From the NCBI RefSeq assembly GCF_003334355.1, contig NZ_QOWP01000002.1: 64,000 nt of DNA; one strand, given 5' to 3'. The notes beneath the pieces are model-generated. The model worked only from the letters and a program-made list of their open reading frames with translations, made no database searches and was not told the DNA's origin. The DNA comes from Escherichia coli. Lineage in GTDB: Bacteria; Pseudomonadota; Gammaproteobacteria; Enterobacterales; Enterobacteriaceae. The translations under genes were made by a program, and so were the position numbers. Shown here in pieces: positions 4,281-5,537 of this stretch. Every line of letters begins with the position of its first letter. The first letter of the stretch is position 1.

Positions 4281-5537
4281 ATGCTACCATCTATTTCAAT
4301 CAACAATACCAGCGCAACTTACCCAGAATCCATTAATGAAAATAACAATGATGAAGTTAATGGATTAGTACAAGAGCTCAAAAACCTTTTTAATGGTAAG
4401 GAAGGAATAAGCACCTGTATTAAACATCTACTTGAGCTTATAAAAAACGCCATACGAGTAAACGACGATCCTTATAGATTTAATATTAATAATTCCTCAG
4501 TTACTTATATTGATATTGGCTCCAATGATACAGACCATATTACTATTGGTATCGATAACCAAGAAACAATAAAATTACTTGCGAGCTATAAAGGCAAAGA
4601 ACTCGTCCGTGCTATCATTAATGACAACATAGTTGAGAAGACTCATGATGATATAAATAATGCTGAATTTACTGATGGTATTATTGTTAGTGGTATTGAT
4701 GATCGTAGTGATATTGGCATTGACTCCAATGATACAGACGATATTACTTTTGATAATCAAGAACCAACAAAATCACCTGCGAACGATGAAAACAAAAAAG
4801 TCGGCCAAACCATCATCAATGAAAATGTAGTAGAGAATACTGATGATATCAATAACAAGAAAAATATCTTCAGCGCAATAAAAGAAATATATAATGGAGA
4901 TCCTGATTTCATTTTCGATAAAATATCACGTAACCTCATACATACTGTAACGAAATTCGATGAGAACGAGAAAAGCAAACCAACGGACTTATTTACCTGG
5001 CACGGTAAAGATAAAAAATACAACACTCTCGCCATTGTAATTAAAAATATAAACGGAAACGATTATTTATCGCTCGGTTACTACGATCAGGACAACTACC
5101 ACATTAAAAGAGGAATTCGTATTAATGGTGATAGTCTCACACAATATTGTAGTGAAAACGCCAGGAATGCTTCAGCGTCATTTGAAAGCAATAAAGCTCT
5201 CATGGCAGAATTATTTGCAACAGGTATAAATCATCAAGTTGTAAACGAACTCAACGGGGAAAGACTGAAAGAACCAAACGAAGTTTTTAAACGTTATGGT
5301 CGAGCAATAAGATATAATTTTCAAGTGGACAATGCAAAATATAGACGCAATAATGTAAAAGAAATAGTTTCTACTTTATTCGATAACGAAGTTAACACTG
5401 ACCATTCTCAAAATATATATGTGCACTATAAGAAACTCGAAGGTAAAATTGAAGAAAGGCTTCAAAATTGCCAGACGGAATATCAAAATGAAATTAATCA
5501 ACTATCTGCGTTAGGTGTTAATTTTGATGATATTTAA
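4281..5537 (+). CDS. yfdF: YfdF, uncharacterised AT-rich protein (418 aa here, containing an internal tandem duplication)
   Basis: Translation MLPSISINNTSATYPESINENNNDE... matches YfdF as recalled; about 66 aa longer than the K-12 length I remember (352 aa). Confidence 0.85.
   Translation: MLPSISINNTSATYPESINENNNDEVNGLVQELKNLFNGKEGISTCIKHLLELIKNAIRVNDDPYRFNINNSSVTYIDIGSNDTDHITIGIDNQETIKLLASYKGKELVRAIINDNIVEKTHDDINNAEFTDGIIVSGIDDRSDIGIDSNDTDDITFDNQEPTKSPANDENKKVGQTIINENVVENTDDINNKKNIFSAIKEIYNGDPDFIFDKISRNLIHTVTKFDENEKSKPTDLFTWHGKDKKYNTLAIVIKNINGNDYLSLGYYDQDNYHIKRGIRINGDSLTQYCSENARNASASFESNKALMAELFATGINHQVVNELNGERLKEPNEVFKRYGRAIRYNFQVDNAKYRRNNVKEIVSTLFDNEVNTDHSQNIYVHYKKLEGKIEERLQNCQTEYQNEINQLSALGVNFDDI
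4510..4917 (+). repeat. Diverged ~204-bp tandem duplication inside yfdF
   Basis: TCCAATGATACAGAC recurs at 4521 and 4725 with similar flanks; protein shows repeated IGxDxNDTDxIT...DNQE...INDN/ENxVExT units. Confidence 0.7.

Follow-up and report, generated by a model that had tools for sequence, protein, structure and literature searches.

Where Escherichia coli K-12 carries the 352-codon gene yfdF, the genome analysed here has an open reading frame of 418 codons, which poses the question of what the 66 additional codons are and whether they were gained in this lineage or lost from K-12. A first-pass annotation of the 64,000-nucleotide stretch of DNA under study (the window, to whose positions the coordinates refer) had read the difference as a tandem duplication of a unit of about 204 bp and had taken it as repeat expansion suggestive of a variable surface or interaction domain. 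Here we describe the structure of the repeat, its distribution among complete E. coli genomes, the divergence within and between its units and its relation to what has been published on the gene.

Identity and context of the locus

The open reading frame, listed at 4281-5537 on the plus strand, is flanked by fadL (2568-3914, plus strand) and mlaA (5719-6474, minus strand), and the order fadL-yfdF-mlaA is common to the window, K-12 MG1655, strain PSS-12 and ten other genomes. Its predicted product is 84% identical to K-12 YfdF across all 352 alignable residues, interrupted by one gap of 66 residues, and 82% identical to a RefSeq protein annotated as IcaT. One RefSeq record names the orthologue 'invasion chromosome antigen IcaT', and the yfdF DNA of E. 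coli PSS-12, which is 100% identical to that of the window, is annotated there as 'hypothetical protein'. Judged from these sequence matches the frame is yfdF (= icaT), in the form of a long, two-unit allele of an AT-rich orphan gene. The gene, an insertion between fadL and mlaA, is confined to E. coli and Shigella apart from two Salmonella isolates reported to carry icaT (PMC9241512). GC content is 29-36% across 4100-5599 compared with about 50% in the flanks, which bears out the AT-richness noted in the annotation, and the horizontal acquisition suggested there is also the view of the literature, in which yfdF is described as low in GC (about 35%) and is thought to have been acquired horizontally.

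A consensus scan placed a candidate bidirectional terminator hairpin, with A/T runs on both sides and no strand assigned, at 5678-5709 between the convergent yfdF and mlaA. Two antisense frames (4575-4760 and 4757-5035) were set aside as spurious, being usual for AT-rich DNA, and an Rfam search and a promoter scan of both strands returned no relevant match. Further downstream, beyond yfdC, lies a tRNA-Arg(CCT) gene (7776-7850; compare L001:6298-7059 and L002:6496-7257). In K-12 the prophage integrase gene intS comes after this tRNA and in PSS-12 dsdC follows it directly, the prophage apparently being absent there.

The additional codons belong to a diverged tandem repeat

Pairwise alignment, which had been proposed as the way to learn whether K-12 shares the two-unit structure, finds one unit in K-12, not two, the window allele differing from K-12 yfdF by a single gap at 4645-4842, which keeps the frame and measures exactly 198 bp or 66 codons. 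A direct-repeat search paired 4502-4551 with 4706-4755 at 84% identity and a spacing of 204, together with a second short pair at a spacing of 195. Local nucleotide alignment of the two units of about 200 bp scored 121 against 19 ± 2.7 for shuffled sequences (maximum 31), and protein residues 77-127 aligned with 145-192 at a BLOSUM62 score of 113 against 31 ± 5.4 for shuffles (maximum 58; z = 15). With the gap, the spacing and the shuffle controls in agreement, the in-frame tandem duplication reported in the annotation, adding 66 residues relative to the 352 of K-12, is upheld; the extent given for it, 4510-4917, was right at its 5' end and at its 3' end ran about 15-60 bp beyond detectable similarity.

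Unit 1 occupies 4500-4703 on the plus strand (codons 74-141, VTYIDIGSNDTD...GIDDR) and unit 2 follows at 4704-4901 on the same strand (codons 142-207, SDIGIDSNDTD...DDINNKKNIF). The two are 68-70% identical in nucleotide sequence over the extended unit, with indels of 6 bp and 3 bp, and keep the motifs SNDTD, NQEP, IIN(D/E)N and DINN between them. Tandem Repeats Finder, run on 3500-6000, reported no repeat, the divergence of the units being too great for it. A module some 66-68 codons long, present as two old and diverged copies in tandem, makes up the central Asp/Ile/Asn-rich stretch of YfdF (I 16%, D 15% and N 13% in the repeat region).

In the pairwise alignment and in an alignment of 12 yfdF alleles, the 198-bp segment missing from K-12 and other short alleles (4645-4842, plus strand) runs from the tail of unit 1 into the head of unit 2, and the head of unit 1 is orthologous to the single unit of K-12. 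The allele alignment places the motif ACTCATGAT at the end of the unit 1 core (4641-4649, plus strand), where it forms the upstream microhomology copy, and finds it again where the core of unit 2 ends (4839-4847, plus strand), this second copy reading ACTGATGAT in the window and ACTCATGAT in the other long alleles examined. In long alleles unit 1 ends in ...GAGAAGACTCATGATGATATAAAT and unit 2 in ...GAGAATACTCATGATATCAATAAC. All four short alleles examined (K-12, B7A, A31 and TUM2820) have one junction, GAGAAG-ACTCATGAT-ATCAATAAC, their sequence being that of unit 1 until ACTCATGAT and that of unit 2 from there on. In K-12 the switch from one unit to the other thus falls within a shared motif of 9 bp, and the short form differs in length from the long by exactly one period.

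A smaller repeat was seen at the head of unit 2 in other long alleles, where a hexanucleotide tract, (GATATT/TTGATA)n (L006:2465-2515 and L005:2465-2505), encodes additional Asp-Ile pairs, from 0 to about 5 of them (DITFDIDIDIDIDIENQEP). No such tract is present in the allele of the window, the equivalent place being at about 4743-4757. It looks like a small slippage-prone microsatellite nested within the larger repeat.

Distribution of one-unit and two-unit alleles

A survey of unit number across E. coli, which the annotation had also proposed, was made on 5426 complete genomes. The whole gene found a megablast match in 4295 of them, chromosomal every time; five apparent plasmid copies were chromosome-sized records or fragments filed as plasmids and not true plasmids. 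The 198-bp extra segment was present at a coverage of at least 80% in 1230 genomes, and some 3050 carry the one-unit form, in which positions 67-197 of the segment query match the single unit paralogously at 60-80% identity. About 1130 genomes gave no yfdF match, in line with the literature, where the gene is reported absent from phylogroup B2.

Long alleles are heterogeneous, ranging from 1200 to 1284 bp with small in-frame indels at the boundary of units 1 and 2, and the 418-residue version of the window is a minor subtype among them, its segment recurring at 99% identity or more in 41 genomes and the whole gene at the same level in 46. The alleles examined had one unit, two units or a partly deleted pair (399 residues), and no other state was seen among them. 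An 'internal addition' to the gene has already been reported in strains of phylogroups D and E (Silué & Campbell-Valois 2022, PMC9241512). It was found in all strains there classed as D (042, UMN026, SMS-3-5 and IAI39, the last two now placed in F) and in all E strains (O157/O55), and in none of phylogroups A or B1 (PMC9241512, Table S1).

Names in RefSeq follow the same division. One-unit alleles are called 'protein YfdF' or 'invasion chromosome antigen IcaT' by PGAP, and two-unit alleles are 'hypothetical protein' in all of the long-form entries listed. Neither form has a match among the NCBIfam models, so that the name is given by some other route.

Duplication in the long alleles or deletion in K-12

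The alignment pattern is symmetric between a duplication and a deletion, and divergence was therefore used to assign polarity. Up to the junction, unit 1 and unit 2 are separated by a JC distance of 0.27 (0.24-0.29), and 17 of the 141 gap-free columns show a fixed difference that sets unit 2 apart from unit-1-type sequences, whereas unit 1 of the long alleles lies at a JC distance of 0.055 from the single unit of the short alleles with 0 fixed differences; divergence from unit to unit is thus about five times that between long and short alleles. Synonymous sites, of which only about 30 enter the comparison between units, gave a dS of 0.25-0.68 between units compared with 0.03-0.18 between orthologous units and at most 0.156 for whole-gene allele pairs, so that dS between units is 2-5 times the deepest allelic dS. 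Fisher's test for the window alone gave p = 0.02. For fadL and mlaA, dS between the window and K-12 is about 0.05. Accelerated protein evolution is ruled out as the cause of the unit divergence because synonymous sites show an equal excess.

On these divergences the duplication appears to exceed the common ancestor of the sampled alleles several-fold in age, and it probably happened before the arrival of yfdF in E. coli; if it predates that arrival, the arriving form would have had two units and the one-unit form would be a later deletion. We consider it likely that the one-unit form of K-12 arose by deletion of one period and that the window allele represents no expansion. Such a history is supported by the accepted E. 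coli tree, in which phylogroups D, F and E are paraphyletic to A/B1 and branch off earlier, so that a single deletion on the A/B1 stem is most parsimonious. The repeat expansion of the first-pass annotation is accordingly not supported: its two units are 30% diverged, well beyond the orthologous comparisons in both JC distance and dS, and the two-unit form is present in 1230 of the 5426 genomes and in D, F and E strains, K-12 being the more probable derivative, by deletion.

Trees of the alleles were insufficient as sole evidence of polarity, since yfdF is a mosaic shaped by recombination, its N-terminus, its units and its C-terminus yielding different trees. In agreement with a deletion, diversity is deeper and greater among the long alleles, whose identity falls as low as 84% towards the 3' end, and the short alleles cluster there with some of the long ones. 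The C-terminal haplotype of K-12 YfdF (...DFQVDDAKYKCDHLKEIVSTLVGNK..., columns about 360-400) occurs in some two-unit alleles and not in other one-unit alleles, and it is from this sharing between K-12 and two-unit alleles that the mosaic nature of yfdF alleles follows. Polarity rests here on clock-like reasoning and the species tree of the literature, without an outgroup: an exhaustive HMMER search of 1.84 billion representatives yielded only fragments or frameshifted pieces of E. coli-type alleles, and a scan of one genome per GTDB species with two peptide patterns found no relative, the E. coli representative in that scan being, as we take it, a phylogroup B2 strain and so from the group that is without yfdF.

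The opposite history, in which a K-12-type one-unit gene is ancestral and the 198-204-bp duplication occurred once in a D/E/F-type lineage with the inner copy then diverging fast, predicts the same alignment pattern as a deletion of one period and is the strongest of the alternatives, although we think it rather improbable. Selection on the protein cannot yield a between-unit dS of 2-5 times the deepest allelic dS, even though, within the long class, change in unit 2 does run at about twice the rate of that in unit 1. The fixed differences, 17 between the units and none between the long unit 1 and the short unit, likewise speak against it unless recombination between alleles kept unit 1 and its flanks alike and so masked an old split; recombination can indeed make unit 1 and the flanks seem to coalesce more recently than they did, and so let the duplication look too old by comparison, and there is no outgroup to set against this. 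D, F and E moreover form no clade that excludes A/B1, so that a derived duplication would need two or more events or lateral transfer of the allele. Deletion of one period from an old two-unit gene therefore stays our preferred reading of the K-12 form.

Regulation and secretion

At 4208-4224 on the plus strand, 73 bp upstream of the start codon, the window carries the published yfdF MxiE box, TGAGCGTTTTTTGATAG, whose sequence and distance (-73) are those of the functional box listed in Table S2 of PMC9769918 and which would on that likeness be a functional site here as well. The box is invariant in 12 of the 12 alleles compared, and a search with the canonical MxiE consensus allowing up to 3 mismatches misses it, as it has 4. 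About 50 bp before the box and about 125 bp before the start of yfdF there is a run of 8 C (4151-4158), which varies from about 5 to 10 C among the 12 alleles and is broken by A or T in some of them.

In S. flexneri yfdF/icaT is activated by MxiE/IpgC through the MxiE box, and the Shigella protein IcaT is secreted by the type III apparatus independently of a chaperone (PMC9241512). For secretion that depends on the T3SA, its residues 1-20 are both required and enough (PMC9241512, section 6). By comparison with that Shigella experiment, codons 1-20 of the window gene (4281-4340, plus strand; MLPSISINNTSATYPESINE) are a predicted type III secretion signal and share 19 of their 20 residues (A13T) with both K-12 and the allele annotated as IcaT. 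All published secretion experiments were done with the one-unit Shigella protein (PMC9241512). H-NS silences yfdF in Shigella and in E. coli (Hall et al. 2022, PMC9769918), and the K-12 and O157 orthologues are turned on once mxiE and ipgC are supplied (PMC9241512). MxiE/IpgC come from the invasion plasmid and yfdF is reported to be silent in E. coli without mxiE/ipgC.

Constraint and inactivated copies

Among alleles dN/dS of yfdF is 0.53-1.14, with dN at about 0 in fadL and mlaA, and between the two units it is about 1. Independent inactivations recur (L009:2001-3245, L008:2001-3244, L013:2267-3325 and L004:2287-3139). O157-type alleles stop at codon 343, as has been published for phylogroup E, GF66.1 differs by 1 bp in length and stops as early as the O157-type alleles, strain A31 has an internal stop at codon 46, and in strain 2017.06.04CC, with IS1 at the yfdF site, just the last 120-140 bp or so of the gene are left. 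The possibility that yfdF is a 'fossil gene' has been raised by the authors of the published work, and near-neutral dN/dS with recurrent inactivation fits that view. On the other hand most genomes retain an open frame of more than 400 codons in DNA of 33% GC, and in nine of the twelve sequenced alleles the frame is preserved across all indels; a long open frame in AT-rich DNA with in-frame indels argues for some residual selection and against a pure 'fossil' status, and the protein may retain a function, perhaps a modular one.

Family, structure and possible function of the module

Profile searches offered little guidance as to what the protein does. Pfam gave no domain at E <= 0.001, surface-protein domains included, its only match being DUF604 at E = 0.059; NCBIfam and PADLOC had no informative match to YfdF, a PDB profile search had none at E <= 1, and the HMMER search of 1.84 billion representative proteins found no relative beyond the YfdF family. 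An AlphaFold2 model from a 21-allele alignment had a mean pLDDT of 37.5 and was not used. The 'T' of icaT refers to a 'low homology' to IS256-type transposases (PMC9241512), an identity that was not reproduced by the profile methods (Pfam, NCBIfam and PDB). The PHROGs family phrog_29678 ('unknown function') matches 4509-5315 (residues 77-345) at E = 4e-135, and tblastn against 50,697 INPHARED phage records found no YfdF homologue; the family is yfdF itself, which probably entered it through a predicted prophage whose boundary ran on into host DNA close to the integration site at argW.

Internal repeats are present in many effectors. It is conceivable, with either polarity, that the repeat is a functional modular domain by which a type III effector binds a host target or partner and that the number of modules and the length of (Asp-Ile)n are adaptively tuned between lineages. 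We hold this to be improbable, more so than a derived duplication. A genuine T3SA substrate in Shigella, a kind of protein in which repeats are frequent, would suit it, as would the frame kept through all indels in nine of twelve alleles and the conservation of SNDTD, NQEP, IIN(D/E)N and DINN between units, but dN/dS is 0.5-1.1 for the whole gene and about 1 between units, only two copy-number states occur, truncations and disruptions recur, and domain, structure and family searches gave no match and AlphaFold2 an unusable model. In E. coli without mxiE/ipgC the gene is in addition silent and possibly a fossil according to the published authors. More doubtful again is the further step that the module is a working host-interaction unit of a still-functional effector and its number a lineage-specific modifier of virulence; were it so, loss of a module (in A, B1 and S. 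flexneri) or retention of two (in D, E, F, some S. boydii and S. dysenteriae) would alter the activity or stability of the effector. The variable surface or interaction domain of the annotation is not supported either, YfdF being a T3SA substrate in Shigella (PMC9241512) with no family match, a dN/dS of 0.53-1.14 and few copy-number states.

The notion that no true duplication exists and that the similarity is a by-product of low-complexity AT-rich, Asp/Asn/Ile-rich sequence can be dismissed, since for all the compositional bias and the blank from Tandem Repeats Finder the composition-preserving shuffles, which rule it out, fall far below the observed scores (at most 31 where the nucleotide alignment reached 121, and at most 58 where the protein alignment reached 113), conserved motifs follow in one order along a collinear match of about 50 residues and the K-12 indel is exactly one period.

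Discussion

The history that we propose for the locus begins with a duplication that would have taken place before any of the sampled E. coli alleles diverged, and probably before the gene was acquired, which makes the two-unit form the putative ancestral one. The 352-residue form of K-12, B1 strains and S. flexneri would have arisen when the two GAGAA(G/T)ACTCATGAT copies recombined unequally, or replication slipped from one to the other, and exactly one period dropped out. The repeat region may have remained prone to further slippage, giving the (GATATT)n runs that encode (Asp-Ile)n and other small deletions, while yfdF as a whole would drift almost neutrally. Its length polymorphism would on this account be tolerated repeat instability in a silent, weakly constrained gene and not the mark of an adaptive variable domain.

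The window allele is like IcaT of S. flexneri and YfdF of K-12 in its locus, in an amino acid identity of 82-84% outside the gap, in the MxiE box at -73 and in low GC, and unlike these proteins of 352 residues (PMC9241512, PMC9769918) it has a second central module that adds 66 residues. It resembles the alleles with an 'internal addition' described in PMC9241512, its additional segment being of comparable length and in the corresponding place; that paper neither describes the addition as a diverged tandem copy of the adjoining segment nor discusses its polarity. Unlike the O157-type alleles, the window allele is full-length at the C-terminus.

Two further genes, IcaR/YjgL and YccE, are like YfdF chromosomal, AT-rich, H-NS-silenced, orphan-like and variable in length between phylogroups, and have MxiE boxes similar to that of yfdF (AGAGCGTTTTTTGATAT and TGAGCGATTTTTGATAG). 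They show no sequence similarity to YfdF in any search, however, and their length variation is attributed to IS insertions and terminal additions and not to an internal tandem repeat. As in contingency-type loci, yfdF alleles gain or lose whole periods in frame at short identical motifs, but the large units of yfdF are only 68-70% identical, which excludes frequent switching, only one or two units are seen, and nothing points to phase or antigenic variation or to exposure at the surface. A copy-number-variable surface protein or contingency locus was rejected on this basis, the units not being near-identical, the copy-number states few and only the short (GATATT)n varying.

The long yfdF allele is real, ordinary and common, and has largely been described already. 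What is new is the recognition of the 'internal addition' as a diverged tandem copy and the placing of the K-12 junction at the common 9-bp motif, together with the genome counts, the (Asp-Ile)n microsatellite and the annotation gap for long alleles. The importance of these findings is small beyond housekeeping: long forms are not named as YfdF/IcaT in RefSeq even though 1230 complete genomes carry them. For the biology of the gene they mean that the familiar 352-residue YfdF of K-12 is probably a shortened derivative of a two-module protein, and as the functional work on IcaT has so far concerned the one-module protein, the question of effector or fossil should include the two-module allele.
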